Part shown: positions 5,221-31,249 of the stretch, in pieces
Position numbering within the stretch: position 1 is the stretch's first letter
How the letters are laid out: the number at the start of each line of letters is the position of its first letter
Source of the DNA: Escherichia coli
GTDB lineage: Bacteria > Pseudomonadota > Gammaproteobacteria > Enterobacterales > Enterobacteriaceae
DNA length: 64,000 nt
Direction: 5' to 3' (one strand)
Assembly: GCF_050920415.1 (NCBI RefSeq)
Contig: NZ_CP169309.1
Position numbers and translations under genes: made by a program
Notes under the pieces: model-generated
Told to the model about the DNA's origin: nothing
Databases searched by the model: none
Seen by the model: only the letters and a program-made list of their open reading frames with translations

Positions 5221-6330
<1,110 letters not shown>

Positions 6331-6364
6331 TGAGGGACACGGTGCCTGTTTCATAAAGATCATT

Positions 6365-6783
6365 TATACCCGTCATACTTCAAGTTGCATATGCGTTGGC
6401 AAGTTATTCAGGGATAGCCGGATGAGTGACATCACCATCCGGCTTAAGATTCCATACTATAATAATTCGAGTTGCAGGACAAAACGCCAGTGGCGTTTTG
6501 AACAACGCTTGCGTTGACCCTGAAAGGGTGAGGCCTAAGGCCGAGTAACGCGACAGGCGAGTGACAAATTCGTCGGGAACGAATTTGACCAGCCTCTGGC
6601 TGGCCTTCGGTGAAAGGCATCCTGCCTTTCAGTCATCCCCAGTCACTTACTGGGGTGAGCGACAAATCCGCATGGAGCGGATTTGAACGCTGCTTGCAGC
6701 GGTCCCGTAAGGGGTGAGGCCCATGGATGGGCCGAATAACTCGCAGACGCAGCACATGCAACTTGAAGTATGATGGGTATATA
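6365..6783. repeat. composite ERIC/IRU-like intergenic repeat with terminal inverted repeats and an embedded REP-like hairpin
   Basis: About 30-bp terminal inverted repeats (TACCCGTCATACTTCAAGTTGCATATGCG at 6365-6395, reverse complement at 6747-6783); internal ACTGGGGTGAGCG and GCAACTTGAAGTATGA match the ERIC consensus as I recall it; hairpin GCCGGATGAGTGACATCACCATCCGGC at 6418-6444. Confidence 0.5.
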
Positions 6784-6939
6784 CACAATGAACTTCAAGA
6801 CACTTGCTTCGGTATCTGGAAATTATCATTAATTCTGGATGCGACCAGCCTTGCTATATCTGGCAATGTTTCTTCAAAAACGTCGATATTGTATCCCAGA
6901 AATCTCACACACTGCTGAACCGGCATGTTCATTAATTAT

Positions 6940-7351
6940 TTATCCAGGCCATTTGCAATCAGTACCATCACTATTATATGCCTCAATATTTTCTTCAAAC
7001 TCAGTTATTTTTCCACTTTTCGATTTATAGTAAGAGCTATTAAATCTTGCACCCTGCGTAGCAACAACATACAATCCGTTGACTTTACATCCTATAACCT
7101 CACTCCATGTATATGTAAACTCTGAAGGTCTATCATCGAAAGTCACTTCCAATTTTTTCGTAAATGCAAGAGGTATGAAATTTGAGGATATTCCATAAAC
7201 CACATAACCTAAAACAACATCACCAGAAGATACTTCAACAAATTTTAAATTTATCTTCCCGAAACTAAAACAGCCAACCGTAGTTTGTTATTTAGCAAAT
7301 AAGAAAAAGGGCATCAAACAAAAAATTAAAACAAATAATTTAACTTTCATA
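6940..7351 (-). pseudogene. small secreted-protein gene interrupted by an in-frame TAA after the signal peptide
   Basis: ATG at 7351 encodes MKVKLFVLIFCLMPFFLFAK then TAA; the same frame continues open into ORF 6940..7203 (…VVYGISSNFIPLAF…). Confidence 0.35.
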
Positions 7352-7703
7352 TCATTTACTCCAATTCAGTTATTCGCCTCTGTACAAAAGCACACACAGA
7401 TTTTGAATTAATGGCGTACAAAAACATAATCGGATGAAAATACCACACCGGAATATTACTGATATAGCGGGATCTTACTCATTCGCTAGACTGAAAATGC
7501 AATTGAACAGAAATTTCTTACTAGTGTTTTTATCAGATGATCGGAAAGGAAATCAACTCACTGGCAAGTATCATAAGCTCAAATTGGCATATTGTATATT
7601 CCCATAAATACTTTTATTTTTTGATTAACATACTCAATACTACACATCACTAATTGAGAGAAGATTAACTTCATCATCTTTGATTAGGTACGTTTTTTAA
7701 TTT

Positions 7704-7922
7704 TCAATGACGCATCATAAAAAAGGGCTTACCAAGTTTAACACTAATAACAGGATATAAAGAAAACATATTGCTATATGAATCCTTTGGCGATGTTTTG
7801 GTTATGGTAATCTTTCCTTCTTTCAAGTGCTCTGCTATTATATGAAATTGAATCGGTCTTGTTGCATCACTTACCCGCAATGGATTACCAGCGTAAGCTT
7901 CATATCCTCCACCATTATTCAT
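7704..7922 (-). other. gene fragment in AT-rich debris (open frame extends upstream to 8020 without a start codon)
   Basis: ORF track plus manual frame extension; no start or RBS, low-complexity AT-rich context. Confidence 0.2.
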
Positions 7923-8268
7923 ATGTAAAATAGTGTATTCGTCATTTAAAAATGACTGCTTACTATCGTAGACTTGGTAGTATATATTACTTATATCAAG
8001 ATAAATTACTATAGAGATATACTTAATTTTTCATTTAGCATTAATGATGTATCCATGGAATCTATACATCTTTCAATATCAGTTATTTTTTCTTCTATAT
8101 ACGTAGCATAATTTTTTGGCACTGGCGTGTTTAGCCCTCATATACCCTCATTAACTAAGACACCATTTTGCTTGCTTTTTACATTGTAATAAAGACAATC
8201 AATATTGAATTTATTATTTTTATATTTCAGTGTTGTATATACAGTAAAATCATGCAGCGAACGCCCAT

Positions 8269-8544
8269 CTAAAACAATTGCGGGCGTGTCAGAAAAAAGT
8301 CAAATGAATAAGATGGATTATTTTCATAATCAGTCATAAATTTCATCTTTCTTATTTCATGATCAACGATCGCATAGATCTCATGATTAGATTCATCATA
8401 TCCATAAATGATTTCACCACCAGTACTGGCAGTAGCAGTAGCACTACTACAAATCAACATAATTACAAGTACATATCTAGTCAAGTTGAAAATCCTTAGG
8501 GGCAGATGATGTTTTTTCCAAGATGGATTGAAATTTTTCAACAT
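8269..8544 (-). CDS. hypothetical small protein with hydrophobic N-terminal segment, possibly a degraded or orphan immunity gene
   Basis: ORF track; segment YVLVIMLICSSATATAS resembles a signal peptide; AT-rich context. Confidence 0.25.
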   Translation of the reverse strand: MLKNFNPSWKKHHLPLRIFNLTRYVLVIMLICSSATATASTGGEIIYGYDESNHEIYAIVDHEIRKMKFMTDYENNPSYSFDFFLTRPQLF

Positions 8545-8854
8545 AAGAATCCATTAATTGCTTCTGATATTTTTCATTAATTATTTTTCGCGTATTATTA
8601 TATTAAATTTTATCACTGTTAATATATGTGGGGATTTTTACTCGTAAAAATCCCCGCCTCAATTCCCCAAATCATAATTGATACAGGACACAACTCTAGC
8701 AATGGTATCGTGAATAGTTTTCTTTAATAAGGCACGTCTCAATTCTTGAACATAAATTCGAATTATTTAGTAAAAAAACATCATCCCTGGGAGTATTACC
8801 TATTTTTGTATAATGCTATATTTATAGTAAACAATTCACAAGAAAATATTATTA

Positions 8855-9805
8855 CTAATATTTATATTCCTCCCACTGAGCACCGTATCGATGCTTTAAC
8901 AGTTTAACTTTAATTTCATCATATGTTTTAACTTTACTACCATCAATCTTAAGGCGAATTTTATTCGAGGTGATATCAACATAATTTCTATTTTCCCCAC
9001 CCGCAGGGAAAAAATCAAACATAAAATTAGACATGTTTTGTTCTTTTTTCATGAGAGCTCCATACTCACACATGTCATTTATATTTTGTATGTATGGAGT
9101 GCCCCCCTGACATGATGGATAATGAAAATCAATTATAGTAAAAAGCGATTTATTGACACTCCTCTGAAAGAACCACTTATTATTTACAATACGATAGGTT
9201 AAAGATTTAAATGTATACCAGTGACTTCCTGGAAGAAAAGAGTAAGCTTCATTAAGATTGACAGTAAATACCTTAGTTTCTCCAGAGGAAAGCTTTACCC
9301 ATTCTGATTTTATATCACAATTATCGCCCATACCAAAATAAAGCTCATCATTGGCATCATCCTCAACAAAATCACATATATTGGTTGCGGAAGGACGGAA
9401 TTTCAGATAGAAACCACTTGTGGATATTAAAAAAGAATCCTCACATAAAGGAGAAAAAAAATAAGGCTCCGATGTGTGTGAGGAGATAGGTAATAATCGT
9501 CTATGAATGAAATTTTCGCTACCCCCCAAATTTGTAAAACTTATTTTTGCTAACACACGAGAGTCAATTTGCTTAACGGTTAATCTAACATCAACATCAA
9601 ACATATTACGATTTGGCAATTTTTCCTCGACTCCGTCAGTGTAATGTGATAACTCAAGTATATTGTCCTCAAGAGTCATCGAATTTAATTTTTGTTCGGA
9701 AACATATTGTGCAATAACCTCATCATTGCAGTATCCATGAAATGAAATAAACATTAGCACTGCAATCTTAACTAATCTCAAAATACTTTTCAATATTGTA
9801 TGCAT
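8855..9805 (-). CDS. putative periplasmic immunity protein (paralogue of 11491..12312) for the HExxH effector
   Basis: N-terminal signal-like segment MHTILKSILRLVKIAVLMFISF; shares SFLPGSHWYTFKSLTYRIVNNKWF with [24 protein letters not shown] of the other immunity candidate; start chosen at the internal Met. Confidence 0.5.
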   Translation of the reverse strand: MHTILKSILRLVKIAVLMFISFHGYCNDEVIAQYVSEQKLNSMTLEDNILELSHYTDGVEEKLPNRNMFDVDVRLTVKQIDSRVLAKISFTNLGGSENFIHRRLLPISSHTSEPYFFSPLCEDSFLISTSGFYLKFRPSATNICDFVEDDANDELYFGMGDNCDIKSEWVKLSSGETKVFTVNLNEAYSFLPGSHWYTFKSLTYRIVNNKWFFQRSVNKSLFTIIDFHYPSCQGGTPYIQNINDMCEYGALMKKEQNMSNFMFDFFPAGGENRNYVDITSNKIRLKIDGSKVKTYDEIKVKLLKHRYGAQWEEYKY

Positions 9806-10567
9806 TATTAAAAACCAGCGGGTCATGTTTTGATTTTAATTCTTTTGCATTGGCAATTTCTCTTTTTTTTCCCAAATCGTTACTGCTTAATCCACCATAA
9901 TACTGTTCTCCATCCCAGATAATAAAAAGGTGAGATAACTCATGGCATAATGTGGAGACTCGAGAGTTTTCTCCCGTTGGATTTTTACATGTGAAATTTT
10001 GTAAGATATCTATAGATATTCTTTCTCGATACTCTAACTTTAAAAGTTCAGCCTTCGACTTATTTTTATACTCACTACTTTGGTATTGGGGCCGATTTAG
10101 ATCTATATGAGTCGTCTGAGCAGCCGGTATACGGGCTGAACCATTGACTAAATTGGTATAATTTTTAAAATTGCCATATATTAGTTGTACATTATCTTGC
10201 GTTCGAGTTTCAATGATCAAGCTATCACAAATCATGATCATTCTGTAAACCCCCTCTTTTATAAAAGTATGTGCGTCAATATTCTTGGTTTGTGGAGTGA
10301 AGTTCCCATTATTATCTGACTTTTGACAAGGAGCATAGTGTTCCATTGTTATAATAGCATCACCTGGTAATCCAAATATATCTTCAAAATTTTTCTGATC
10401 TGCTGGTGTCCATGCTTCCAGATTTTTGCTCTGATATTCAATACTCGCTTTGTTTCTTCCAAAGCAGGCGTTATCATGTTGTAAAATTGATCAGTAACCT
10501 TTGCTTCTTTTTTACATATATTGCCTTTTTGAGTTACCCCTTGTGAACTTCCTTTGTTATTATTCAT
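9768..10567 (-). pseudogene. frameshifted paralogue of the vgrG-linked HExxH effector
   Basis: N-terminal part in ORF 10349..10582 (KEAKVTDQFYNMI versus KEQKITDHFKIMI in the intact copy), remainder in a different frame 9768..10346 carrying STLCHELSH and NNAYNIEKYFEI; frames differ at about 10346-10351. Confidence 0.5.
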
Positions 10568-10975
10568 AAACACCTCCCTCAATCATATCTATACTTTGAT
10601 GCAATAGCCTGACTTTTATCGTCAGCTCACTGTCAGTGATAAATATTTCCGTATACCCATCCTTATCCGTTTCCCCTCGCGCTTGTGTGCCGTCCTCAAA
10701 AAAGGCAATGTAGCGTGTTTCTGAATACGGTATCCCGTCATCGTCTGTAAAATGAAACTGGAGGGTGTATTTCTCAGGTTCATCCTTATCTTCATTGTCG
10801 TTCCCAGAATCATTTCCATCGCCACCACCGACCCCGCCATTGCCTTGCCCGCCCTCTGCACCACCATCTTTATCACTACCTTCATCCGTCAGTGCCTCCA
10901 GCACGCCCGGTTGCAGTGTCGGTACCGGAGTCCCCGGACTACCCCCACCATTCAGATTTATCTTCGGCCCCCAGG
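10560..10975 (-). pseudogene. vgrG 3' fragment (C-terminal about 135 codons of a second vgrG allele)
   Basis: Nucleotide-level similarity to the 3' end of the intact vgrG (for example CCGTCCTCAAAAAAGGCAATGTAGCG..TTTCTGAATACGGTATCCCGTCATCGTCTGTAAAATG), breaking off at about 10975 where the H-repeat fragment begins; encodes DEPEKYTLQFHFTDDDGIPYSETRYIAFFEDGTQ. Confidence 0.6.
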
Positions 10976-11340
10976 GAAAGATTACGAAAGCCCGCTCCCC
11001 GCAAGGACTGACGCCAGATACTTTCTGTCCATGGCTGCTTTTCGCATCTTACGTCTTAACCCTGCCTTGAATACCTTATCATTCGTCAAAATATTAATAG
11101 CGATGTGCCGTATCCCTGAAAATAATTCTGCTGCATTTCCTCTTCTTATTTTGCAGTCGTCTTCATTCATTACCACGTCCAGACGCCAGTGCAGCTTATT
11201 CTCCACGTGCCCGTGGTTTCGGATTGCTGTGGCGAACTTCTCTGCGGTTAAATCAGCAGAACTGATATAATATCTGACCGTCATTTCTGGCTCTTTCTTT
11301 TGTTCTGCTATTATGGACCGAAAGGAGACTGCCACGCATA
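10976..11340 (-). mobile_element. H-repeat (ISAs1-family transposase) 3' fragment
   Basis: ORF 10982..11335 encodes ...[71 protein letters not shown]..., which I recognise as the C-terminal third of the Rhs-associated H-repeat protein; no intact transposase. Confidence 0.6.
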
Positions 11341-11490
11341 ATTTCTTCAGCCCTTTCCATTCAAACGTGAAATCAATAAGTTCATCAGGGACATCGCAAA
11401 CAATATGAAGACGGATTTCTTCTCTGCCGTGACTAAAATGCGAATTATTTAGTACAAAAAAAGCGGCGCACCTTGTTCTTTCCCAGATTC

Positions 11491-12312
11491 CTAATATGGC
11501 AACTTTAAGTTATCGCCGTCTATACTTATAGAAATTTCATCAGGGGTGACGTAAATAGAATTTTTTTCATCCTCAATTGCCCATAACTGATTAATAAAAA
11601 AGTGTTTTTTTTCATCTAATAACAAATTATCACATGTAGTAAAATTATTAATATCAAAAAGATCATCAGCACAATTAATTTTTAAATTTAAAAAATAAAG
11701 AAAAATATTATTGATTGATTTGAGTGTAAACCACTTGTCATTAACAAATTTATAGCCAGATGATTTTATAAAATAATAATTATCTCCTGGTATAAAGGCA
11801 TACATATCATTTAAGGTTATACTCAACAAAAAACTACGACCTGGTTTAATAGTATTCCACCGTTCAGGATTCGTATTAATTTCAAAAGGACATGAACCAC
11901 CTAAGTAGTCCAACGTGATATTCCCAGAGTTGATTCTGAATGGTTTTTTGCATATTGCATCATATTCATCTCCTTTTCCATCTTTTACTTTCATAGGTAG
12001 ATAATATTTAGAAAAAAAATACGTGGTAGAGCTTTTGTTAGTAAAGGTTATGTTAGCAAAAATCCTGTTATTTTTTTTACTCATAGCTAATTGAGCATTG
12101 ACATCCGCTATATAATTTATATGATTACATTTTTTCTTACACTCATCATAATTTTCGATAGGATAAATTAATGGCCTTCCTTTGATATCTCTCTCAAGCC
12201 CAAACCCGTATTTTTTTATTAAAACCATTTCATCTGCAGTCGATTGAAAGGAATAGAAAAATATAATATTTACGATTGTCATTATTATGATTTTTTTTAT
12301 AGCTTGCAGCAT
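11491..12312 (-). CDS. putative periplasmic immunity protein for the adjacent HExxH effector
   Basis: 273-aa ORF directly downstream of the effector; signal-peptide-like N-terminus [26 protein letters not shown]; paralogous to 8855..9805. Confidence 0.5.
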
Positions 12313-12335
12313 TAATATATTTCTCGACTTATTAG

Positions 12336-13127
12336 TTAATGGAGAAGTGCTTTTTCTAATTCCGCTATTTTTTTCTTAACTAAATTGCTTAATATTTCAT
12401 CATTAATCGAGTCTATCTCACTTTCAATTAATCTTATTTCAAAATATCTTTCTATGTTATATGCATTCTCAAATATTTGATCTTTTTGTTTAGAGATCAG
12501 TTTAGTTGCAATACGGATATGTTCGTCATATGAAACTTCATCCTCTTTGCACGTTGAATATTTATCAGTAGTTGTATAATCCTGTGACCACATACCACCT
12601 TTTTTATTATCCCTATAATACCACTGAATATGAGACATTTCATGACATAAAGTAGCAACATGAGAATCCTTTCCCGTTACTGGATTTTTTTTGCCATCTC
12701 TATACTCAAATTTTGCGCCTATGTTAATTATATAGGGCATATCCTTACTTGGGCTGACGAATGCTGCAAATTCATTACAACCTGTATAATTTATAAAACT
12801 GCTCATTGTTAAATCATTAGCTATAATCATTAATCTTCTCACACCATCCATCATAAGAAATCTAGCATTCATGCGCCTGCCTGTATTATGTCCATATTTT
12901 CTTATATTAACTTCCTTATTTCCTTTAACACCAAAGATCTTACTGAAATCATATTCCTCCTGTGCTCCCCATCTCAAAAGATCATCTGCTCTTTTTATCA
13001 AAACCAACTTTTGTGCCTTACGAGCCTTATCAATCATTATTTTAAAATGATCAGTTATTTTTTGCTCTTTCACACATTCTTCTGGCTCTGGCTTTGGTTG
13101 TCCAGAAGTTTGATTATTATCGTCCAT
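12336..13127 (-). CDS. putative T6SS effector, zincin-like metallopeptidase (HExxH motif), vgrG-linked
   Basis: HEMSH in ATLCHEMSHIQWY; no signal peptide; probable start MDDNNQ at 13127 overlaps the vgrG stop by 11 bp; conserved C-terminal ENAYNIERYFEI shared with the paralogue. Confidence 0.55.
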   Translation of the reverse strand: MDDNNQTSGQPKPEPEECVKEQKITDHFKIMIDKARKAQKLVLIKRADDLLRWGAQEEYDFSKIFGVKGNKEVNIRKYGHNTGRRMNARFLMMDGVRRLMIIANDLTMSSFINYTGCNEFAAFVSPSKDMPYIINIGAKFEYRDGKKNPVTGKDSHVATLCHEMSHIQWYYRDNKKGGMWSQDYTTTDKYSTCKEDEVSYDEHIRIATKLISKQKDQIFENAYNIERYFEIRLIESEIDSINDEILSNLVKKKIAELEKALLH

Positions 13128-15522
13128 AGTGTCCTTCCATTGAGAGAAAATCATCATTCGCAAATAGCAACTTCACTTTAATTTCATGTTTGCTAGATAC
13201 AAAAAAACGCTCTGTATACCCCTCTTCATCCGTTTCTCCGCGGGTCTGCGTGCCATCCTCAAAGAAGGCAATGTAGCGGGTTTCTGAATACGGTATCCCG
13301 TCATCGTCTGTAAAATGGAACTGGAGAGTATATTTTTCAGGTTCATCCTCATCGTCACCTCGATCATCACCACCACTTCCGGTCACGCAGTTCCCTCCAG
13401 AGTTTTCATTTTCTTCTCCGGAATCACTGCCATCACCACTCTTCTCATCCCCCAGTGTCTTCAGCACCGCCGGTTGCAGCGTCGGTACAGGCGTCCCCGG
13501 ACTGCCTCCCCCGTTCAGATTTATCTTCGGCCCCACTATATCCACGCCCCCTGAATGGATGACCACAAACGAGCCACCCAACTTCAGGCTTATCCGGCTG
13601 CTGCTCTCCAGCACGATATCCCCGTCCACCTTTATCCCCAGCGCACCACTCACCTTCCTCGCCAGGTCGCCTTTCACCTCCAGGCTGTGTTTTCCCTCCA
13701 CCAGGCTGATGTGGTTTCCTGTCGTTTTGTGCTCCTGCTTCCCTTCCACCGTCACCTTTCGGTCGTTTCTGACGTACAGACCGTCATCGTGGCTGACGTT
13801 CACCCGCCGGTCGTTCGTCACCTTCAGCGTCTGGTCGTTGCGCACCGTGATGCTCCGGTCATGGGCCACCGTGATACTCTGGTCGTGGCCCCCTTCTTTT
13901 CTGGTGCCGACCTCAACCGTCTGCCCCTTCACCACCCTTATCTTCTGGTCGTTACCGATGGTCTCCGTATGGTCATGCTTCACGTCCGTCGTCCGGTCGT
14001 TAAGCACCTCCGTGTCCATGTTCTTCTGCGCGTGGATATACACCTGCTCACTGTCCGTCGCATCCTCGAAACGCAGTTCATTAAAGCCGCTTCCTTTATA
14101 GGTCTTCGAGCGGATGGTCATCTGCGTCCGCGTGCCCGGTAAATCCCCCGGTGAACGGTTATCTTCATGGTAGGTCCGCCCCGTCACAATGGGCTGGTCC
14201 GGGTCTCCGTTCAGAAAGTCCACTATCACTTCCTGACCCACACGCGGTATCGCCAGATTGCCGAACCCCGGTCCCGCCCATGCCTGCGACACCCGTATCC
14301 AGCATGAACTCTCCTCCGTCATCCCGTGATAACGGTCCCAGTGAAACTTCACCCGTACCCGGCCATGCTCGTCGCAGAATATCTCCTCGCCCTTCGGCCC
14401 GGTCACGATGGCACTCTGCGGGCCGTCCACCTTCGGCTTCGGCAGCGGCGCGTGACGCCACGTCCTGTCTGCCGGTATCACCTCAAACTGGTTACTCAGC
14501 GTCGTCCCTTCACCGTGACTGCCGTGCAGCGCCTGCGGCTGTTCTCCCCGCAGTGTGCTTCCCACAACCTGCCATTCCCGGTTCAGCGTATCCGACGGGT
14601 GACCCGACAGGGTAAACCGCGTTCCCGGCCACAGCCGCGCCGTGTTACACACCCCGCTCGCCGTCTCCGCCCCGTTCCGCCACCCTTCCGTCTGGTAACG
14701 CGCAAAATCCTGGCCATGCTGCTCATCCTTGAAACGCCCCGGATAATCAAATATCTCGTACTGCGTTCCCTGCCCGTTCAGGCTCTCCCCGTCATGGCTG
14801 TAGTACCCCGGCCACCCCGGCACTTTAAACGTATAATCCTGCGTCTCCACCGACGCCACGCTTATCTGCGCACGGTAACGAAACTCACTGATGTACTCCG
14901 TCGTTCCCCCGGTCGTCGTGTTCGGGTTAAACGCCAGCGCCCCCATTCCCGTCAGCCCCGCCACGTCATCACACACCGCCAGCTTCTGTTCCGGCCCGTC
15001 CTGACTGCAGCGTTCATAAAAGAAGATACCTTCCTCCGCCCACAGCCGGGTCAGGAACGCCAGGTCGCTCTCCCCGTACTGCACGCAGAACTCCCGCGCC
15101 GGATGGTCTTCATAAAACAGCGGCATCCACGCCGTCACCCCGTTCTCTCTCAGAAGCTGTGCTGATATCGTCCCGATGTCCTGCTGCTGGAAGATACGGA
15201 AGTTCTGCCGTAACCCTGCCCGCCACAGCGGCGGGCTGATGCTCAGGGAATAACGCATCTGCCAGTCGTTGTTCTCACCGAGCTGCACCTCCGTCACGAT
15301 ACCGCTGACGTAACGCTGTGCAGTGTCGCCCTGCCAGACCGTCAGCACCGCGCTTTTCTCCAGAAAATCCTCCGCCGTCAGGTCGGACAGCCCGCTGGCG
15401 ATATCCACATCCAGGATGAACGGTGTGCAGTGGTGCTGGTACAGACGGAAGCTCACCACCGCCGTCGCCATCTCCACGATGTCGTCCACCGACAGCGTGA
15501 AACGTAATCCTTCTGAGGACAT
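13117..15522 (-). CDS. vgrG: T6SS spike protein VgrG with C-terminal extension (Gly/Asp/Glu-rich linker plus TTR-like adaptor domain)
   Basis: gp27/gp5-like core (LRFTLSVDD..., octapeptide beta-helix repeats KIRVVKGQTVEVGTRKEGGHDQSITVAHDRSITVRND...); likely start MSSEGLRFTL at 15522 (ORF track begins at 15555). Confidence 0.85.
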   Translation of the reverse strand: MSSEGLRFTLSVDDIVEMATAVVSFRLYQHHCTPFILDVDIASGLSDLTAEDFLEKSAVLTVWQGDTAQRYVSGIVTEVQLGENNDWQMRYSLSISPPLWRAGLRQNFRIFQQQDIGTISAQLLRENGVTAWMPLFYEDHPAREFCVQYGESDLAFLTRLWAEEGIFFYERCSQDGPEQKLAVCDDVAGLTGMGALAFNPNTTTGGTTEYISEFRYRAQISVASVETQDYTFKVPGWPGYYSHDGESLNGQGTQYEIFDYPGRFKDEQHGQDFARYQTEGWRNGAETASGVCNTARLWPGTRFTLSGHPSDTLNREWQVVGSTLRGEQPQALHGSHGEGTTLSNQFEVIPADRTWRHAPLPKPKVDGPQSAIVTGPKGEEIFCDEHGRVRVKFHWDRYHGMTEESSCWIRVSQAWAGPGFGNLAIPRVGQEVIVDFLNGDPDQPIVTGRTYHEDNRSPGDLPGTRTQMTIRSKTYKGSGFNELRFEDATDSEQVYIHAQKNMDTEVLNDRTTDVKHDHTETIGNDQKIRVVKGQTVEVGTRKEGGHDQSITVAHDRSITVRNDQTLKVTNDRRVNVSHDDGLYVRNDRKVTVEGKQEHKTTGNHISLVEGKHSLEVKGDLARKVSGALGIKVDGDIVLESSSRISLKLGGSFVVIHSGGVDIVGPKINLNGGGSPGTPVPTLQPAVLKTLGDEKSGDGSDSGEENENSGGNCVTGSGGDDRGDDEDEPEKYTLQFHFTDDDGIPYSETRYIAFFEDGTQTRGETDEEGYTERFFVSSKHEIKVKLLFANDDFLSMEGHYGR

Positions 15523-15805
15523 ATAAACCCCATAGCTACCGCACTCATGGTGCAAACCCTACAGAATTATAAGAAAGACTTAAGTGAGATATCCGTCAGA
15601 TAGCAACTATTAGGAAAATATTTATATACATTTCATGAATACATTCATTAATACCGAGATGTTTTTGTCTATATAAACAGAGCAAGCTAACGTCCTCACT
15701 CCATGAAAGAAACTACGTAGGGGCCTTTCGGTCCATAACAACTTTTTCCCTGTTATATCCTGACGTTCTGGTCTACTGGTGTAGTCATGCATATTGCAAC
15801 GTTCT

Positions 15806-15915
15806 ACCCATGGAAAGATAAATAAAGCCAGCTCTCCGCAAGGACTGAAGCGAGGTGCTTTCTGTCCATAGCTGCTTTTCGCAACTTACTCCTTAACCCA
15901 ACACTGAATTTCTTA
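15806..15915 (-). mobile_element. short H-repeat (ISAs1-family) 3'-end remnant, direct repeat of 10976-11065
   Basis: About 110 bp about 85% identical to the 3' end of the H-repeat fragment at 10976..11340 (..CCGCAAGGACTGA..CTTTCTGTCCAT.GCTGCTTTTCGCA..); encodes ..[25 protein letters not shown]. Confidence 0.45.
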
Positions 15916-16055
15916 TGATTTGTCACAGTATGAACTTTTAATTTCATACATTGCTCTTTAGTCAATAGAAGAAAAATAAGCACCCTCTCCCAAACGACAC
16001 AAATAACCTGCAAATGGGAAATGACTTATTACTTAGAAATTTGCAGAGATATAAA

Positions 16056-16337
16056 TCACGAGATATATCCACCTTTTGAGTTAACAGTTACAGACGTTAT
16101 AACATTATCTTTTATCCAGATATCAACAAAAAAGTCCTTACCACAATAAAGACATTCACAATATCCTTCAGAGATAAAGTTGTCCTTAAGTTTATTTCTG
16201 GTTATATTAATAAGTTTATCGCCAGGATTGTAATGTACTAAATTTCCAGATGGCACAAACATCTCAATTTCACACTGTCCTGACGTTCCACATCGAGGGC
16301 AAACGCACCATGCTTTCAATAAATCATAATTCGACAT
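16056..16337 (-). CDS. hypothetical Cys-rich zinc-ribbon-like small protein
   Basis: 93-aa ORF with two Cys clusters (CVCPRCG and CECLYCG); located between ybbP and vgrG. Confidence 0.35.
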   Translation of the reverse strand: MSNYDLLKAWCVCPRCGTSGQCEIEMFVPSGNLVHYNPGDKLINITRNKLKDNFISEGYCECLYCGKDFFVDIWIKDNVITSVTVNSKGGYIS

Positions 16338-16387
16338 TATATTACCTTAATTTATTTCACATCAGCATCCCCCCTTGCAAACCACAA

Positions 16388-16744
16388 CTAAACTATTCCC
16401 ATAAAATACAACGAGATAATTTTACTGTTAAACGTACATTCACAAAACTCAGGGGAAGAAAAATGACCATCAGTCAAAAATAAAGATAGTTTGCTTAGTG
16501 CGTAATCAATTGAATCAAGCGACAAGTATAATTTTATTACTAGTGAGTTCTGTATCAGGACATCATTTTCATTGGGGGATTGTAAAAGTAATAAATTTTT
16601 ATACGCTACAGGTGATCTGTTTTCCAGTCTAATAGGTTTGCTTGCTTCCGTCTCCAATAAACTATAAAGAGCACAAACCATCTCATGAGCATCATCTTTC
16701 TCAAAATGTAAATGAAACCCGCCCAGAGATTTATTAGCAATCAT
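16388..16744 (-). CDS. hypothetical protein
   Basis: 118-aa ORF from the ORF track in the AT-rich island flank; no recognisable motif. Confidence 0.3.
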   Translation of the reverse strand: MIANKSLGGFHLHFEKDDAHEMVCALYSLLETEASKPIRLENRSPVAYKNLLLLQSPNENDVLIQNSLVIKLYLSLDSIDYALSKLSLFLTDGHFSSPEFCECTFNSKIISLYFMGIV

Positions 16745-16841
16745 AATACGTTTCTAAAGTTGATTTGAAATTTTGCATTTCATGCTCATCAAAAAAATAA
16801 ATATATTTTAACTACAAAGCAAACATCACAGCGCATAGCGG

Positions 16842-17057
16842 TTAATATTCTACCTTAACGACTTTCATTCCTCTTTCAATCATACCATTAATTAATTGAT
16901 AATACTCTTTATCCCCTACATCTACTATTAGAATATGTCCGGTAAGTTCATTGATGAATAAATACTCAGGTTCCTCATCTGTACCAGCATTTGAAATAAC
17001 CCAACCTGGATCAGTACCATCTATAAAAAACTCCCACTCTTTAAAATTAACACTCAT
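16842..17057 (-). CDS. hypothetical small acidic protein (possible orphan immunity protein)
   Basis: 71-aa ORF, compact acidic protein, AT-rich context next to a polymorphic-toxin island. Confidence 0.3.
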   Translation of the reverse strand: MSVNFKEWEFFIDGTDPGWVISNAGTDEEPEYLFINELTGHILIVDVGDKEYYQLINGMIERGMKVVKVEY

Positions 17058-17179
17058 TTAATCCTCCTTTTTATACTCGCAAGAAAAGGAGAGTATCGTT
17101 TCTAACTCTGAAATAAAAGTATGATAAAAGACAGGACCTGGCCTCATTGAATGTTATTTCTCAATTCTTGATAGTTTTT

Positions 17180-17280
17180 GCCGGATGCGGCTTGAACGCT
17201 TATCTGGCCTACACAATCTTGCAAAATCAATATATTGCACGCTCTTCGTAGACCAGATAAGCGTAGCGCATCAGGCAATC
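17180..17280. repeat. REP/BIME-type palindromic units downstream of ybbP
   Basis: GCCGGATGCGGCTTGAACGCTTATCTGGCCTAC and CAGATAAGCGTAGCGCATCAGGC are REP consensus-like hairpins. Confidence 0.55.
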
Positions 17281-17292
17281 TAACACCTGTCA

Positions 17293-19707
17293 TCACCCCG
17301 CAAACTGCCTGAACAGCGCCTTACCCTTAACCAGTCGCGCACCCAACCAGCCGCCGAAAAGCGACAGCAGCAGTGCACCGCTACAAGGCAGAACAATCCA
17401 CAATCGCCAGTCTGGCTCCCACGGGAAATCAAACACTTTTGATTGCAGTACCGCCAGTGCCGTTTCCGCACCAATTGCGGCCACCAGGCCGGAGACAAAC
17501 CCGAGCATGGCGAACTCACACCACAATGTCGTGCGCAGCAGTTTTTTGCCCGCACCGAGAGTGCGCCACACCACCAGCTCCTGATGACGCTGACGCATTC
17601 CCACCTGCACCTGTGCCAGCAACAGCAACATACCGCAGGCGGTGACCAGCACCACCATCACTTCCAGCGCCCGACTTACCTGCTCCAGCACCTGACCGAC
17701 CTGTTTTAAAATCGCGCCAATGTCTAACAGGCTAATGGTCGGGAACTGGCGGTTGAGTTGCGTCAACATGCCGTTGCCATTCTCCCAGCGGAAACTGGTA
17801 AGCCAGCTCTGCGGTTGCCCGTCTAATGCCCCTTCCGGGAAAATAAAATAGAAATTAGGCCGCAGACTTTCCCAGTCCACTTTGCGCAGGCTGGTCACTT
17901 TAGCGCGGAACTCCTGGGTATCGCCCATAAAGGTGACGGTATCGCCGAGGGTAACATTTAAGCGTTTCGCCAGCCCCTCTTCCATCGATACTTCATCGGC
18001 TTTTGGCGGCCAGTTACCAGCGACAATCGGATTATGATCGGGCCGCGTATTTTGCCAGGTGAGATTGAGTTCGCGGTTGAGCGCCTCATCTTCATTGCCT
18101 TCTGTCGGCTTGCCGTTAATCGCCGTCAGCCGCGCCCGCACCACCGGATAAAACGATTCCGGGACTATCTGATGTTCCGCGAGGAACGCTTTTAGCGGAG
18201 TAACCTGTTCTGTGGCGATGTTGATTAAAAAGTAGTTAGGACTTTCTGGCGGTAGCTGCTGTTGCCAGCGATCGAGCAGATCGCCACGCAACACCAGCAA
18301 CAGTGCCAGCAGCATAAAGGAGAGCGAAAATGCCGAAAGCTGGCTTAACGTTGACCACGGCTGACGTAACAGGCGGCTAACCGCCAGGCGCAGAGGCAGC
18401 GATTTCAGCGTCATGCGGCGAAGTACATTCAGCAGCATCCAGCCCAGGACACCGCACAGCAAAGCTAGTACTATCGCGCCCGCCAGCACCGCCCAGAGCA
18501 GCATACTGCCGCCCATCAGTCCGGCGAGCAGCAGCACAACCACCACACTGACAATCGGCAGATAAAACTTGAGCGGCCAGACGTTCGCTACCACATCATT
18601 ACGTAATACGCGTAAAGGCTGCGTTGCCAGCAACAAGCGGTACGGTCGTAGCCCCACCAGCAGCGAGATGACCGTCATGGTGCCAAGCGCCCACAGCCAT
18701 GGCCAGAGGCTGGCAGGCGGTAGTGCGGCAGGCAGAACGGGCTTGAGCAGTACCATCAACACGTTTTCGAACAACAGGCCTATCGCCCCGCCGGTAACGG
18801 CTGAAAGCGCCAGCACCATCAGCCACTGACCGACGATTAGCTTACGCAGTTGCGCTCGCCCAGCCCCCAGCGTTTTGAGGATCGCCACCAGATCGTAGCG
18901 ACTACGACAGTAATGATTCATCGCCACCGCCACCGCTGCCACTGCCAGCAGCAAGGTCAGAAGCGCCGAAAGCAGCAGAAACTGTTGCGAGCGTTCCATC
19001 GATCGCCCCAGCGCGCCTTCGTCCTGTTCCAGACCGTACCAGCGTTGTTCGGGTTTAAGCTGGGGTAACAACCATTTCTCATAGCCGTCGAGCTGGTTCT
19101 CGCTGCCGCCGAATTTATAGCGCCAGGTGACCCGACTCCCCGGCTGCACGGCTCCGGTTTTATCGACATCCGCCAGATTCATCATCAGACGCGGAGCCAT
19201 CTGGAAGGGGTTAAAACCGGAATCCGGTTCCTGAATCACTTCTCCGGCAATCCGCAAGGTGGCATCGCCCACGTCAATGGTGTCGCCTGTTTTCAGGTTA
19301 AGCAGTGCCATCAGGCGTGGGGCCAGCAATACGCTGCCCGCCTGCGGTTTCAGGCCAGGGGGATTGGTTTGCAGATCGCCATACATCGGGTAGATATCAT
19401 CCACCGCTTTAACATTCGCCAGCTGCGGCGTATCGCCCGCAAAAGTCATCGTGGCGAAAGTCAGCTGCTTGCCGACTTTCAGGCCGCGCTTTTGCGCTTC
19501 CTCCAGCCACGCTTGCGGCACTTCGCGTGAACTGCGCAACGCCCGATCGCCCGCCATAAACTCACGGCTTTGCTGGCTTAAGCCCTTCTCCATGCGATCG
19601 CTGATATTGCCCAGCGCCAGCACGCAGGCCACCGCCAGGCTTAGCGCCAGCCAGACAATTAATAGCGACGGCGAGCGCCATTCGCGCCAGAACCAACGTG
19701 CAATCAT
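17293..19707 (-). CDS. ybbP: ABC transporter permease (FtsX-like, two permease domains)
   Basis: About 804 aa from MIARWFWREWRSPSLLIVWLALSL; overlaps ybbA by 4 bp. Confidence 0.88.
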   Translation of the reverse strand: MIARWFWREWRSPSLLIVWLALSLAVACVLALGNISDRMEKGLSQQSREFMAGDRALRSSREVPQAWLEEAQKRGLKVGKQLTFATMTFAGDTPQLANVKAVDDIYPMYGDLQTNPPGLKPQAGSVLLAPRLMALLNLKTGDTIDVGDATLRIAGEVIQEPDSGFNPFQMAPRLMMNLADVDKTGAVQPGSRVTWRYKFGGSENQLDGYEKWLLPQLKPEQRWYGLEQDEGALGRSMERSQQFLLLSALLTLLLAVAAVAVAMNHYCRSRYDLVAILKTLGAGRAQLRKLIVGQWLMVLALSAVTGGAIGLLFENVLMVLLKPVLPAALPPASLWPWLWALGTMTVISLLVGLRPYRLLLATQPLRVLRNDVVANVWPLKFYLPIVSVVVVLLLAGLMGGSMLLWAVLAGAIVLALLCGVLGWMLLNVLRRMTLKSLPLRLAVSRLLRQPWSTLSQLSAFSLSFMLLALLLVLRGDLLDRWQQQLPPESPNYFLINIATEQVTPLKAFLAEHQIVPESFYPVVRARLTAINGKPTEGNEDEALNRELNLTWQNTRPDHNPIVAGNWPPKADEVSMEEGLAKRLNVTLGDTVTFMGDTQEFRAKVTSLRKVDWESLRPNFYFIFPEGALDGQPQSWLTSFRWENGNGMLTQLNRQFPTISLLDIGAILKQVGQVLEQVSRALEVMVVLVTACGMLLLLAQVQVGMRQRHQELVVWRTLGAGKKLLRTTLWCEFAMLGFVSGLVAAIGAETALAVLQSKVFDFPWEPDWRLWIVLPCSGALLLSLFGGWLGARLVKGKALFRQFAG

Positions 19708-20390
19708 GCTTCCTCCTGCAACTGCCCGTTCACCAGCCGTAAGCAGCGGTCGCAACGTGCCGCCAGTTGAAGGTCGTGGGTCACCATAATCAACGTGGTG
19801 CCATGTTCACGGTTGAGAGAAAACAGCAGGTCGGCAATTTTATCGCCTGTCTGGCGGTCAAGGTTGCCGGTGGGTTCGTCGGCAAACAGCACATCAGGCC
19901 GACCGTTAAAGGCACGCGCCAGCGCCACTCGTTGCTGTTCGCCGCCGGAAAGCTGTGCCGGAAGATGATCAAGACGTTTACCCAGCCCTAACTGTTCGAG
20001 CAACGCTTTCGCCCCATTACGACTTTCCACGCTACTCTCACCGCGCAGCAGCGCCGGAAGCTCGACGTTTTCCAGCGCGTTAAGGGTAGGAATTAACATA
20101 AATGACTGAAAAACAAAGCCTACGTGCTTCGCGCGCAACTTTGCCCGCGCTTCTTCGTCCATATTATGTAGCGGTTGTCCCACCAGATTTACTTCGCCAC
20201 TGCTGCCGTCATCCAGTCCGGCGAGGATCGCCAGCAACGTTGACTTACCCGATCCCGACTCGCCTACCAGCGCGATGGTCTCGCCACGTTTGACAACCAG
20301 CTCAACTCCGGTGAGGATGGAGAGTTCATGCTCCCCCTGACCGACGGACTTCTTAAGATGATGAACTTCAACAATGTTTTCCGCTGGCAT
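19704..20390 (-). CDS. ybbA: ABC transporter ATP-binding protein
   Basis: 228-aa ORF with Walker A GESGSGKST, signature LSGGEQQR and Walker B LFADEPTGNLD. Confidence 0.88.
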   Translation of the reverse strand: MPAENIVEVHHLKKSVGQGEHELSILTGVELVVKRGETIALVGESGSGKSTLLAILAGLDDGSSGEVNLVGQPLHNMDEEARAKLRAKHVGFVFQSFMLIPTLNALENVELPALLRGESSVESRNGAKALLEQLGLGKRLDHLPAQLSGGEQQRVALARAFNGRPDVLFADEPTGNLDRQTGDKIADLLFSLNREHGTTLIMVTHDLQLAARCDRCLRLVNGQLQEEA

Positions 20391-29669: not shown

Positions 29670-30077
29670 TCACCCCGCTCGATGATGACAGCAGCCGGAG
29701 AGATTTTCGATAATTGGGCAGTCGGCGCTGTCATCACCGGGGCAGGCATTCGCCAGCGCCAGTAGCTGGTCGCGCATGGATTGCAGCTCCTCAATGTGCC
29801 GTTCGATCTCCGCTACCTTCTCCAGCGTACGACGTTTGACGTCGGCACTGTGACGCTGCGGATCGTTAAACAGATTCACCAGTTCGCCGCTCTCTTCCAG
29901 GTTAAAGCCCACCTGGCGCGCCTGGCGCAGTAAGGTCAGTTCGTTGAGATGCTGCTGCGTGTAGGTTCGATAACCATTTTCGCTGCGCATCGGCGGCGTC
30001 ACTAGCCCCTTTTCTTCATAGAAGCGAATGGCTTTGCTGGTCAGGCCGGTAATTTTTGCTACATCGCTAATGTTCAT
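29670..30077 (-). CDS. cueR: MerR-family copper-responsive transcriptional regulator
   Basis: 135-aa [29 protein letters not shown]... with C-terminal metal-binding Cys pair (CPGDDSADC), matching recalled CueR. Confidence 0.92.
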
Positions 30078-31249
30078 CGTTCGCGCAACGCCTCCTGTGC
30101 TTTGTTAAAGGGTTTCAACAGATAATCCAGCACGCTTTTTTTGCCGGTGCGGATATCGACCGTCGCCACCATGCCGGGAAATATCGGAAACTGCTGTTTA
30201 TGTTTATTTTCCAGATGGTTGCTGAAAGTGCGAATGTACACCCGATAGTAATAAACATCGCGTCGCACTTCATCCTGCACGGTGTCTGGTGATATCACCG
30301 CCACTTCCCCCGGCAGGCCGCCGTAGATGGAGTAGTCGTAAGCGGTTATTTTCACCAGCGATTTTTGCCCCGGATGGATAAACGCCACATCGCGGGGGGA
30401 GATTTTTGCCTCGATCAACAGTTGCTCATCCAGCGGCACGATAGTCATAAGTTTACCACCGGGGGCGATGACGCCGCCAACCGTGGTGACGTCAATGTCC
30501 TGAACAATGCCTCGCACCGGCGCAGTAAAGTTGAGCCGGGTGAGAGAATCTTCCCGCCCGCGGATCACCGAACGCTGGGTTTCCACTTCCGCATTGGCTT
30601 TCGCTAACTCTTCCCGCGCCTGTACGTAGTATTGCGTACGCACGTCGCTAAGTTTGTTTTCCAGTTCATTGGCCTGGCGTTGCAGGCGCAGCACTTCAAC
30701 GCTGCTCGCCGCCCCCTGTTTCACCAGCGGCTGGGTCATCGCCAGTTCGCGGTTGACCAGGCTGATCCCCTGCGTCAGCCCGGTGGTGGCTTTGTTCAAC
30801 CCGTCGCGGCGAGTGTTATATAACGCCGTTTCCGACTCGATAAGTTCGGGGAATTTATTCAGTTCGTCAGGAAAGACCAGCGGTTTATTGCTCACTTCTG
30901 CCCGCAGCCGCGCCGAGGTTGCCAGCGCCGCATACAGCCGCGACATCGCTTCCTGGACGTCGGATTCCGTTTTGGTGCGGTTAAGCTGCGCCAGCGGCTG
31001 CCCCTGTTCGACAATATCGCCAACCTTCACGTCGAGATGATACAAAATCCCGCCTTCCAGCGACTGCACCACCTGTTCGCGTCCAGAAGGTTCTACCGTG
31101 CCGCTGCCGGTGGTGACTTCATCAAGCTGGAAGTACCACGCCCAGCCGAGAAAACAGAGCAGCATCACAGCGGTAACGCGCACCGCCAGCGCCGAACGTG
31201 GCAGGCGGGGTTCAGTCAGGCCACGGTTGTATTGCAGTTGTCCGTTCAT
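30074..31249 (-). CDS. type I secretion periplasmic adaptor (HlyD-family membrane fusion protein)
   Basis: 391-aa ORF with N-terminal TM segment, coiled-coil and beta-barrel domains; overlaps the ABC gene by 4 bp. Confidence 0.85.

Follow-up and report, generated by a model that had tools for sequence, protein, structure and literature searches.

Orphan toxin–immunity modules generated by C-terminal displacement have been described for Rhs and CDI systems (Jackson 2009, Poole 2011 and Koskiniemi 2014, as cited in PMC5361080), and the displacement model is established (PMC5361080, PMC8546570). In V. cholerae, effector–immunity modules have been displaced sequentially (Kirchberger et al. 2017, PMC5361080). 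Two peptidase systems are also close to the locus described here. M35PAR is toxic in the E. coli periplasm, is neutralised by its immunity protein and binds a VgrG C-terminal fragment (PMC10673891), and the C-terminal domain of VgrG2b has a thermolysin-like fold with E983 as an additional ligand (Wood et al. 2019, PMC6899460). A spare, displaced toxin–immunity cassette is of a kind already known, and the locus that we describe provides a further case with VgrG as the carrier.

The genes lie in the ybbP–mnmH island of E. coli, at the position of the K-12 rhsD locus, and all are on the minus strand. Within the window, the whole 64-kb stretch of DNA that was analysed, the order of genes is vgrG, effA, immA and an ISAs1 remnant, followed by a vgrG 3′ remnant, effB and immB:

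13117..15522, minus strand: main vgrG, full-length (TIGR03361, E=9e-177; Pfam Phage_GPD, Phage_base_V and Gp5_trimer_C)
12336..13127, minus strand: effA, 263 aa with HEMSH, the active-position paralogue of effB (RefSeq name ‘M35 family metalloendopeptidase’)
11491..12312, minus strand: immA, cognate immunity gene of effA, with a signal peptide ending ...FQSTA and followed by DE
10972..11443, minus strand: ISAs1-family (H-repeat) transposase remnant, C-terminal part only
10560..10971, minus strand: vgrG 3′ remnant, 412 bp or 137 codons, aligned to 13117-13534
9768..10567, minus strand: effB pseudogene, a putative aspzincin (M35-like) HExxH metallopeptidase effector, split in this genome
10428..10429, minus strand: site of a 1-bp deletion in effB, from alignment to three complete E. 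coli genomes
8855..9805, minus strand: immB, intact, 316 aa (323 aa from the ATG at 9826)

A sequence-only reading had proposed that a second module, made of a vgrG 3′ end, an effector and an immunity gene, lies downstream of the first, and had suggested aligning the two copies. All three parts are found on the minus strand close to where that reading placed them, and the alignments, once run, gave similarities far beyond chance. The window contains no T6SS core genes. Small open reading frames downstream (91 and 72 aa; 136 aa in locus L002) and upstream (71, 118 and 93 aa) have no similarity to the effector or immunity family, and an Rfam scan of 6000-17500 returned no match.

The vgrG 3′ remnant and its tail

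The vgrG 3′ end was expected to cover about 415 bp, close to the 412 bp measured, and its conserved stretches had been described as near-identical to the main gene. This is overstated at the DNA level, because the remnant is 81% identical overall to the vgrG 3′ end at 13117-13534, and the two conserved blocks of 90 nt and 147 nt (repeats D1 and D3, partners 2563 nt apart) are 86-87% identical; as protein, the TTR-like segment is 89% identical. The longest exact match between the two copies is 38 nt. The shared 90-nt and 147-nt blocks could support recombination, and no recombinants between the two vgrG 3′ copies were observed.

The remnant encodes the end of the beta-helix, a Gly/Asp linker, the TTR-like segment and a B-type tail (...RLLHQSIDMIEGGVYE). 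The N-terminal domains are missing from it, whereas the gp27-like and gp5-like domains are present in the main vgrG (TIGR03361), which ends in an A-type tail (...LLFANDDFLSMEGHYGR). The two proteins diverge in the upstream Gly/Asp-rich linker and again over the last 28-30 residues (...RFFVSSKHEIKVKLLFANDDFLSMEGHYGR versus ...IFITDSELTIKVRLLHQSIDMIEGGVYE). A difference at the extreme C-terminus had been seen from the sequence alone, and it holds, extending further than the 20 or so residues first given. The same reading had taken the tails to be consistent with allele-specific effector recognition. Across 10 loci, a set that includes unrelated VgrG cores, the last 25 VgrG residues do co-vary with effector type (Mantel r=0.78, p=2e-4, n=10 loci), and B-type tails are found on DUF2345-type VgrGs too. 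This co-variation is a correlation only, and physical linkage in one mobile cassette could give an equal pattern. The tail is a candidate loading determinant.

A 114-aa open reading frame (10560-10904) within the remnant spans only the extreme VgrG C-terminus and has no NCBIfam match. One explanation for its presence, which we regard as highly improbable, is that it serves as a stand-alone adaptor joining effB to VgrG, so that the pair is active wherever effB is intact. A separately encoded VgrG C-terminal fragment does bind VgrG and an M35 effector in E. coli PAR (PMC10673891), and at least 129 contigs carry an annotation of the frame, which still encodes the TTR-like segment and the B-type tail. 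However, translation could begin only at a GTG (10904) that lacks a Shine-Dalgarno sequence, only the last beta-helix residues are left while the part that stacks on VgrG is gone, and the cut falls at an IS end and not at a domain boundary. The near-identity of all copies accounts for the conservation of the stub. Within E. coli, dN/dS is 0.13-0.27 for the stub (2-3 changes), 0.24 for immB (16 changes) and 0.39 for effB (9 changes), with too few changes to show selection.

The effB frameshift and the immB gene

The start codon of effB is the ATG at 10565-10567, which overlaps the stop of the vgrG remnant by 8 nt (ATGAATAA) and is preceded by a GGAGG Shine-Dalgarno sequence. As the sequence-only reading had recognised, effB is a HExxH effector paralogue split by a frameshift. 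Its N-terminal reading frame (10349-10582) is 34% identical to effA (E=5e-6), and its C-terminal reading frame (9768-10346) is 40% identical (E=2e-13) across the HExxH region; the downstream frame holds HELSH, Asp231 and the AYNIEKYFE motif. The position of the lesion needs correction, having first been placed at 10346-10351. Compared with three complete E. coli genomes, effB carries a 1-bp deletion between 10429 and 10428 that turns GCGAAAAA into GCAAAAA through the loss of one G of GAGCGAAAAAT, and the stop at 10349-10351 is a downstream consequence of this deletion. Programmed frameshifting was considered and rejected, since relatives encode effB in one frame.

The intact allele encodes 266 aa (WP_001063571.1, in loci L001 and L002); strain N96 and the nearest genome, MFDS1022581, have the intact gene in sequence that is otherwise the same. 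At the same orphan position, intact 266-aa effB is found on at least 132 contigs, and the split products on one contig only, that of the present genome. In the roughly 63.5 kb aligned to MFDS1022581, the deletion is the sole indel and affects one base, which points to a very recent lesion or, less likely, to an assembly error.

The second possibility, in which effB is intact and forms a complete second orphan pair as in the relatives, is in our judgement unlikely, and several observations speak on each side. The lesion is a single base beside an A5 run, the split is seen in one assembly only, and in MFDS1022581 and N96, otherwise the same in sequence, the 266-aa gene is whole. The main vgrG of this assembly also contains a divergent patch, with 26 SNPs within 196 nt, that might reflect problems in polishing repeats. 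Against this, no other indel occurs in the aligned sequence even though it includes a repetitive adhesin gene of 20.8 kb, and a lone error would land in the 801-nt effB by chance about 1.3% of the time. Furthermore, other, independent effB frameshift alleles of 161, 226 and 243 aa exist on 2, 6 and 3 contigs (L003 and L017 among the loci), so that real inactivation of effB recurs.

The immunity gene had been described as an intact paralogue with a signal peptide, and the alignments agree. Over 224 residues, immB (8855-9826) is 24% identical to immA (E=3e-20), and at 316 or 323 aa it is as long as alleles elsewhere. The start common to orthologues is the ATG at 9805 (MHTILK...). The N-terminus is signal-like, with a K/R-rich stretch followed by a hydrophobic one; the start of immB and the 3′ end of effB overlap by 38 nt. 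Intact immB was counted on about 131 contigs and disrupted immB on about 7; the corresponding numbers for effB are at least 132 and about 12. The view that the displaced toxin degenerated and only its immunity gene survived does not stand as a general history: the present split was found on one contig only, and the two genes are disrupted at similarly low rates. The displaced toxin is usually kept whole, which fits a reserve role better than plain decay.

Breakpoints and origin of the cassette

The orphan cassette starts exactly where the ISAs1 remnant ends (10971/10972), a junction read directly from the sequence. The remnant matches positions 241-314 of the 314 in profile NF033564 (E=2.3e-27), and RefSeq labels its equivalent ‘ISAs1 family transposase, incomplete, missing N-terminus’. 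As no complete transposase is encoded, the element is a remnant and not a mobile IS. A second ISAs1 remnant end (D2), 80% identical, lies at 15807-15934.

Between the two vgrG 3′ copies is an inserted segment of 2563 nt (13534..10972) with the TTR block, tail A, effA and immA. E. coli C4 has a vgrG-effA-immA-ISAs1 unit at its yncG-yddH locus, with which the segment shares 99-100% identity between about 13375 and about 11426; homology to the C4 unit ends at 10971. Relative to that unit the main vgrG is a mosaic, with sliding identity of 37-87% in its core and 99-100% over its last ~260 nt. This contrast between module and core argues for insertion of the cassette into a resident vgrG. The effector-replacement event suggested by the sequence-only reading is supported in its displacement part by the junction at the ISAs1 end and by the imported 2563-nt module that resembles the C4 unit; decay of the old toxin as its general outcome is the part that fails.

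We therefore read the locus, with good though not full confidence, as an orphan T6SS effector–immunity cassette produced by C-terminal displacement at the vgrG island. The ancestral state would have been a resident B-tail vgrG followed by effB and immB, an order that Phytobacter and Enterobacter still have in their main T6SS clusters. The 2563-nt module would then have arrived with a vgrG 3′ block, tail A, effA, immA and the ISAs1 remnant, its left end lying within the conserved TTR-coding vgrG 3′ block and its right end the end of the ISAs1 remnant. The resident tail, effB and immB would have been shifted downstream, losing their carrier, with strand unchanged.

Genomes of related bacteria hold arrangements that resemble the proposed ancestor. 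Enterobacter soli has hcp grouped with a full vgrG that ends in a B-type tail, an orthologue of effB (60-65%) and an immB-like gene of 317 aa, and gene order is the same in Phytobacter ursingii. In L017, a longer B-tail vgrG, in which the remnant sequence is embedded (98.4%), stands with effB and immB beside T6SS remnants. A resident full-length vgrG-B at the ybbP–mnmH locus was not found in any genome examined.

The direction of the displacement event is what we infer from sequence; alternatively, the B fragment may have been picked up behind the ISAs1 remnant. Such accretion, with the B cassette and its vgrG 3′ stub added later behind a resident A cassette by, for example, an ISAs1-mediated or illegitimate event, appears quite unlikely to us. 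It would account for a junction at an IS end, for the other DNA that follows the same IS end where the vgrG-effA-immA-ISAs1 unit occurs elsewhere, and for the different genomic context of the B cassette in L017. Yet the signature of recent import is on the A module, 99-100% identical to the yncG-locus unit behind a divergent upstream vgrG core, and not on B. In addition, the orphan begins at the position that pairs with the beginning of the insert (13534 corresponds to 10971, at a spacing of 2563 nt). A break at the homologous point is predicted by insertion into vgrG and would be unexpected for capture of a random fragment. Under displacement, the limits of the cassette, its IS junction and a donor-like unit elsewhere can be read base by base as a record of weapon exchange.

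Effector and immunity families and comparison with known systems

Single-sequence NCBIfam and Pfam scans of effA, effB, immA, immB and the vgrG stub were uninformative, with no significant PF14521 match for effB alone in the Pfam scan, and assignment of the effectors needed family profiles and structure models. In an alignment of 44 family members, C208-H209-E210-x-S212-H213 and D231 (in GG[ML][GS][TS]xD) are invariant, as is the AYNIExYF motif. The effB family has both the HExxH and the Asp of a GTxD-type motif as third zinc ligand. PF14521 (Aspzincin_M35) is matched by 5/44 members at E<=0.001 and by 16/44 at E<=0.1, and the family profile matches the PDB sequences of AsaP1 (E=3.9e-6) and GfMEP (E=1.4e-4). 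With an AF2 model of effB (pLDDT 91.5), the only confident Foldseek matches are AsaP1 and GfMEP (probability 1.0, TM 0.63-0.65 on GfMEP length). On these profiles and models, effA and effB are probably aspzincin (M35-like) zinc metallopeptidases without signal peptides. A relationship to VgrG2b was considered and rejected, as it appears neither among profile matches at E<=1 nor in the Foldseek top 50.

The primers in the supplement of PMC10673891 match locus L022 exactly, which identifies M35PAR as the effector of that locus and allowed us to compare it directly: M35PAR is 35% identical to effB (E=2e-45), and its immunity protein is 31% identical to immB (E=1e-30). The periplasmic toxicity of this homologue bears only indirectly on the zinc-dependent peptidase activity predicted for effB.

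For the immunity proteins, the family profile had no match among PDB sequences. The predicted core of immB is a beta-sandwich (mean pLDDT 78), and the best match of the model is to the chain of the AsaP1 zymogen, with none to catalytic-only M35 structures. The modelled immB core may on this basis resemble the propeptide of an M35 zymogen, and such a fold suggests how proteases of this T6SS family might be inhibited. The literature searched contained no description of immunity to T6SS metallopeptidases through a propeptide-like protein. A broader hypothesis, somewhat less likely than not in our estimation, is that the immunity proteins are descendants or mimics of the inhibitory M35 propeptide, acting in trans in the periplasm (a ‘split zymogen’). 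The last 25-30 residues of VgrG, the effector and the immunity gene would then form one exchangeable cassette, with the conserved TTR-coding block as its 5′ recombination arm and displaced copies preserved whole as a reattachable reserve.

In the mechanism that we favor, effA and effB would be loaded on the VgrG C-terminal tail through their conserved helical N-terminal region and would act in the periplasm of the target cell. The periplasmic immA and immB would most likely plug the active site with their propeptide-like beta-sandwich core. Having lost effB by a private 1-bp deletion and kept immB, the present genome would be immune to effB-armed neighbours without firing effB. The corresponding prediction is that this strain resists effB-armed Enterobacterales. 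In most other carriers the orphan pair is intact, and may be a silent reserve that is reattached to the spike by vgrG 3′ recombination. No minus-strand intrinsic terminator is predicted between immA and immB, and promoter-like sites are not enriched (14 found versus 11.6 expected); the orphan genes may be expressed by read-through.

Compared with Rhs/CDI orphans, the locus shares a 5′-truncated carrier 3′ end with a variant tip, a toxin and its cognate immunity gene, placed downstream in the same orientation with a homology block. The truncated carrier end, the paralogous same-strand pair downstream and the homology block were each looked for here and found. The cassette also sits at the K-12 rhsD locus and, like Rhs elements, is accompanied by H-repeat (ISAs1) remnants. 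The differences are that the carrier here is VgrG, that the toxin is a separate cargo gene and not the C-terminal tip of the carrier, and that the displaced part is a recognition tail of ~30 residues plus a TTR-like segment with an IS end as its junction.

As in V. cholerae, the incoming module recombines through conserved sequence upstream, and the earlier immunity gene persists downstream of it (PMC5361080). There, the old effector is usually lost and immunity arrays accumulate, whereas here the effector is complete in most carriers. An array of the V. cholerae type, with effector lost and immunity kept across carriers, was accordingly rejected on the contig counts for effB given above (at least 132 intact, ~12 disrupted).

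M35PAR of E. coli PAR shares with the orphan the same effector and immunity families, a B-like tail (...LLNQNIDMILGGVHE) and the 8-nt overlap between vgrG and effector, and its periplasmic toxicity is neutralised by the downstream gene (PMC10673891). It differs in having a DUF2345-type VgrG core and another allele, and in occupying an active, non-orphan position in a T6SS cluster. P. aeruginosa VgrG2b/PA0261 is likewise a VgrG-linked HExxH peptidase behind a TTR-like domain, with periplasmic action and periplasm-facing immunity (PMC6899460). Its domain is, however, part of the spike protein itself and resembles thermolysin and the gluzincins, with a Glu as the additional ligand, and its immunity protein is a lipoprotein; effA and effB, as probable aspzincins with the Asp in a GTxD motif, are unlike it. 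AsaP1 (2x3a) and GfMEP (1g12), both M35 aspzincin peptidyl-Lys metalloendopeptidases, share the HExxH and GTxD Asp with effB and match it in profile and fold, and the predicted immB core may correspond to the part of the AsaP1 zymogen that is not catalytic. Unlike both, the effectors have a further helical region at the N-terminus and the AYNIExYFE motif at the C-terminus, and identity is only 12-19%. AsaP1 is a secreted single-chain zymogen with its propeptide in cis, whereas here the catalytic and the putative propeptide-like parts are separate genes.

Layout and relatedness of the two cassettes

The island that carries both T6SS effector cassettes in this E. coli window has a GC content of ~30%, against ~55% in its flanks, and is bounded by ybbP (17293-19755) and mnmH/selU (5236-6330), the position held by rhsD in K-12. 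On the minus strand, cassette A (in the active position) precedes the orphan cassette B in the following order:

about 15804-16013, minus: ISAs1 remnant, first
13117-15522, minus: vgrG, full, ending in tail A
12336-13127, minus: effA, HExxH effector
11491-12312, minus: immA, immunity gene
10972-11443, minus: ISAs1 remnant, second
10560-10971, minus: vgrG 3' stub, ending in tail B
9768-10567, minus: effB, effector paralogue split over two frames
8855-9805, minus: immB, immunity paralogue

No T6SS core genes were found within the 64-kb window. The sequence-only reading had proposed that a vgrG 3' end, an effector paralogue and an intact immunity paralogue form a second copy of the module, and pairwise alignments bear this out. 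The stub aligns with the end of the full-length vgrG at 81% identity; two repeat blocks in it, of 90 and 147 nt (86-87% identical), have their partners 2563 nt away, and the longest exact match is 38 nt. Similarity to effA gives E=2e-13 for the HExxH-bearing ORF of effB and E=5e-6 for the N-terminal one. The immB gene is of the full length known from other genomes and aligns with immA at E=3e-20. At the protein level, VgrG A and VgrG B have in common the segment EPEKYTLQFHFTDDDGIPYSETRYIAFFEDGTQ.RGETD..GYTE (89% identity) and diverge in the Gly/Asp-rich linker and the last 28-30 residues.

Several smaller features accompany the cassettes. A 25-nt minus-strand motif, TTTTT[T/G]TACTAAATAATTCG[A/C]ATTT, occurs at 8754-8778 and 11436-11460 (copies 92% identical), shortly 3' of both immunity-gene stops; in cassette A this places it on the inner border of the ISAs1 remnant. 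The motif may mark a conserved end of the cassette, or the resemblance may be fortuitous. Two minus-strand ORFs lie in the island's low-GC tail: one of 91 aa (8269-8544), whose N-terminal segment is hydrophobic, and one of 72 aa (7704-7922). Both are kept in other cassette carriers, and neither has relatives detected in the effector or immunity families. A 136-aa signal-peptide ORF (6940-7350, minus) is intact in strain N96 (L002:13058-13468); its codon 21 is mutated from TAT to the stop codon TAA in both the window and the nearest genome, MFDS1022581, the two being identical over 6940-7350. No similarity to immA or immB was found. The ORF could be what is left of a further small gene for a periplasmic, perhaps immunity-like, protein. 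Between mnmH and the island lies a 30-nt inverted repeat (6365-6394 and 6752-6781, 93% complementary, arms 357 nt apart), around which Rfam gave no match.

Origin of the orphan cassette

Homology to the vgrG-effA-immA-ISAs1 unit at the yncG-yddH locus of E. coli C4 (the C4 unit) runs from 15379 to 10971 and ends exactly at the start of the stub, which lies 10 bases after the transposase stop codon. In L017, a metagenome-derived Escherichia contig, B-type sequence (98.4% alike) is continuous with a longer vgrG adjoining T6SS remnants, which shows that the stub is what remains, at the 3' end, of a vgrG that was once complete. In a sliding comparison with the C4 unit, identity is 37-87% in the vgrG 5' end and core, 92-94% from about 13975 to 13375 (86% in the bin with a window-specific SNP patch), 99-100% from about 13375 to 11426 (TTR block, tail A, effA and immA) and 94-97% in the ISAs1 remnant. 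These steps make the main vgrG a mosaic in which the 3' end was exchanged recently, as one module with effA and immA.

The homologous points, 13534 and 10971, lie 2563 nt apart, the same distance as separates the repeats. In the simplest reading, a module of this length would have been inserted into a resident vgrG-B, with its left junction in the conserved 3' block and its right junction at the IS end; the 3' block would thereby have been duplicated and tail B, effB and immB displaced. The cassette is real, and the effector replacement suggested from the sequence is, as a displacement, well supported by the IS-end breakpoint, the continuity in L017 and the C4 identity gradient. The reverse order, in which cassette B was added later, fits less well, being a poorer match to that gradient.

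Displacement of C-terminal modules is known for rhs, and the same model has been put forward for T6SS clusters of V. cholerae and for vgrG loci of agrobacteria (PMC5361080, PMC8546570). Such events recur: in Phytobacter and Salmonella, too, the effector–immunity pair is followed by a displaced 3' piece of vgrG (441 aa and 359 aa, respectively) that has other cargo. The E. coli T6SS cluster L022 (3498-12156) has two complete vgrG–M35 effector–immunity cassettes in tandem, with DUF2345-type VgrGs, which shows that a cassette can also be duplicated in tandem at full length instead of being displaced.

The effB lesion and its consequences

The effector is split by a frameshift, as first read, though not at 10346-10351: alignment with three complete E. 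coli genomes places the lesion between 10429 and 10428, where the window lacks one G (GCGAAAAA to GCAAAAA). Downstream, this loss accounts for the stop at 10349-10351 and for the ATG at 10346. Exact-sequence look-up found the split products on one contig only (5,311,592 bp), that of this genome. Intact 266-aa alleles occur on at least 132 contigs, and one of them, WP_001063571.1 ('M35 family metalloendopeptidase'), is present in two of the three complete cassette-bearing genomes (MFDS1022581 and N96). The 100%-identical allele is preceded by the same 114-aa stub in every long enough E. coli contig retrieved. Other, independent truncations leave 161 aa (A8-to-A7; also RMDEC465), 226 aa (also L017) or 243 aa, on ~11 contigs together, and immB is full-length on ~131 contigs and truncated on ~7. 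Toxin and immunity loss rates are therefore similar and low; the earlier idea of an old toxin decaying beside a retained immunity gene applies here as a private single-base lesion and is not supported as a general account. Independent frameshifts elsewhere in the family comprise effA in the active position in C4 (L016, 8231-9023), effB beside the degraded T6SS cluster of L017 (6419-7099) and effB of RMDEC465 (L003, 9834-10319).

Comparison with MFDS1022581 over about 63.5 kb shows 5 scattered SNPs, a 26-SNP cluster in vgrG, one IS2 and one indel, the effB deletion itself. With so few differences, the deletion must be very recent. It is probably a real mutation, since no other indel is seen even in a 20.8-kb repetitive adhesin gene; an assembly error, the other explanation for a lone missing base, is correspondingly unlikely. 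The IS2 is present only in MFDS1022581 (L001, 12900-14128), in the island tail (window site about 7594-7599), and a 6-nt overlap of its flanking alignments is compatible with target duplication. All 26 SNPs found in 12.8 kb fall within 13669-13864 (196 nt, vgrG beta-helix region), where the window is ~87% identical to every other copy at the locus and those copies are 96-98% alike; this patch either was acquired by gene conversion from another vgrG paralogue or reflects faulty polishing of a repeat. Farther along, a giant 6924-aa ORF (33412-54186, minus), annotated in the nearest genome as the BapA-related adhesin SiiEA, is flanked by type I secretion genes at 30074-33408 and 54295-55650 (HlyD-family adaptor, permease/ATPase, TolC-family protein).

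The damaged effB retains its strong Shine-Dalgarno sequence as well as the ATG that overlaps the stub stop, and translation from there would yield 47 native and 25 out-of-frame residues. The catalytic part is left in a 192-codon ORF with no obvious ribosome-binding site before its ATG. The immB gene is intact, and its start overlaps the effB 3' end. No minus-strand terminator was predicted between immA and immB, no enrichment of promoter-like sites was seen, and read-through from the vgrG operon would be the most economical source of orphan expression. This genome would be expected to be protected against effB and to deliver none. Where other strains have an intact effB, a crossover within the 38-nt match or the homology flanking it would join the spike to tail B and delete effA and immA; no recombinant joining spike to tail B was seen in this analysis.

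VgrG tails, effectors and immunity proteins

We compared ten vgrG–effector–immunity sets: five from E. coli (window A, window B as taken from L001, L017 and the two L022 cassettes), two from Buttiauxella and one each from Phytobacter, Enterobacter and Salmonella. Identity over the last 25 VgrG residues follows effector identity (Mantel r=0.78, p=2e-4) more closely than does the TTR-like segment (r=0.50), and effector and immunity identity correlate at r=0.95. A ...RLLHQSIDM[IV]EGGV[YN]E-like tail always precedes B-type effectors, even on DUF2345-type VgrGs with unrelated cores, and a ...LLFA....EGHYGR tail (68% identical over the last 25 residues) precedes A-type effectors in Salmonella and E. 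coli. The tail of Buttiauxella L020 has only the terminal EHYGR in common with A-type tails (36-42% identity). The tail difference noted at the outset stands, and the correlation supports allele-specific effector recognition, which we infer with the reservation that linkage in one cassette gives the same pattern. In E. coli PAR, an M35 effector binds a VgrG C-terminal fragment and requires it to reach VgrG (PMC10673891), which gives independent support.

Taken singly, effA and effB had no match in Pfam or NCBIfam. Alignment of the 44-member effector family revealed an invariant C-H-E-x-S-H, an invariant Asp in GG[ML][GS][TS]xD and a C-terminal AYNIExYF. The family profile matches the M35 aspzincins AsaP1 (E=3.9e-6) and GfMEP (E=1.4e-4) in PDB, PF14521 matches 5 of the 44 members, and an AF2 model of intact effB (pLDDT 91.5) has these two proteins as its only confident fold matches. 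A relationship to VgrG2b was sought and not found, its domain being unmatched by the family profile or the effB model; that domain is described as thermolysin-like, with a Glu ligand (Wood et al. 2019, PMC6899460). Primers in the PMC10673891 supplement match exactly the ends of the second L022 cassette, which identifies the PAR effector, M35PAR, as a family member (35% identity to effB, E=2e-45); its immunity protein is 31% identical to immB (E=1e-30). M35PAR is reported to be toxic on periplasmic expression and to be neutralised by that protein (PMC10673891).

The immB family (65 representatives at 50% identity) has signal-type N-termini and conserved cysteines, features that fit a periplasmic site of action. 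GfMEP structures hold the catalytic domain only and appear among the fold matches of effB, not those of immB; we infer from this that the part of AsaP1 matched by immB is the propeptide half. From the predicted structures, there is an even chance that immB resembles this half and that immunity acts like a propeptide supplied in trans, of which no report was found in the searchable literature. This putative propeptide-like fold and the clean cassette boundaries are the most interesting by-products. The system itself belongs to known kinds: it is an orphan effector–immunity module, and its effectors are of an M35-type T6SS family with an experimentally studied homologue.
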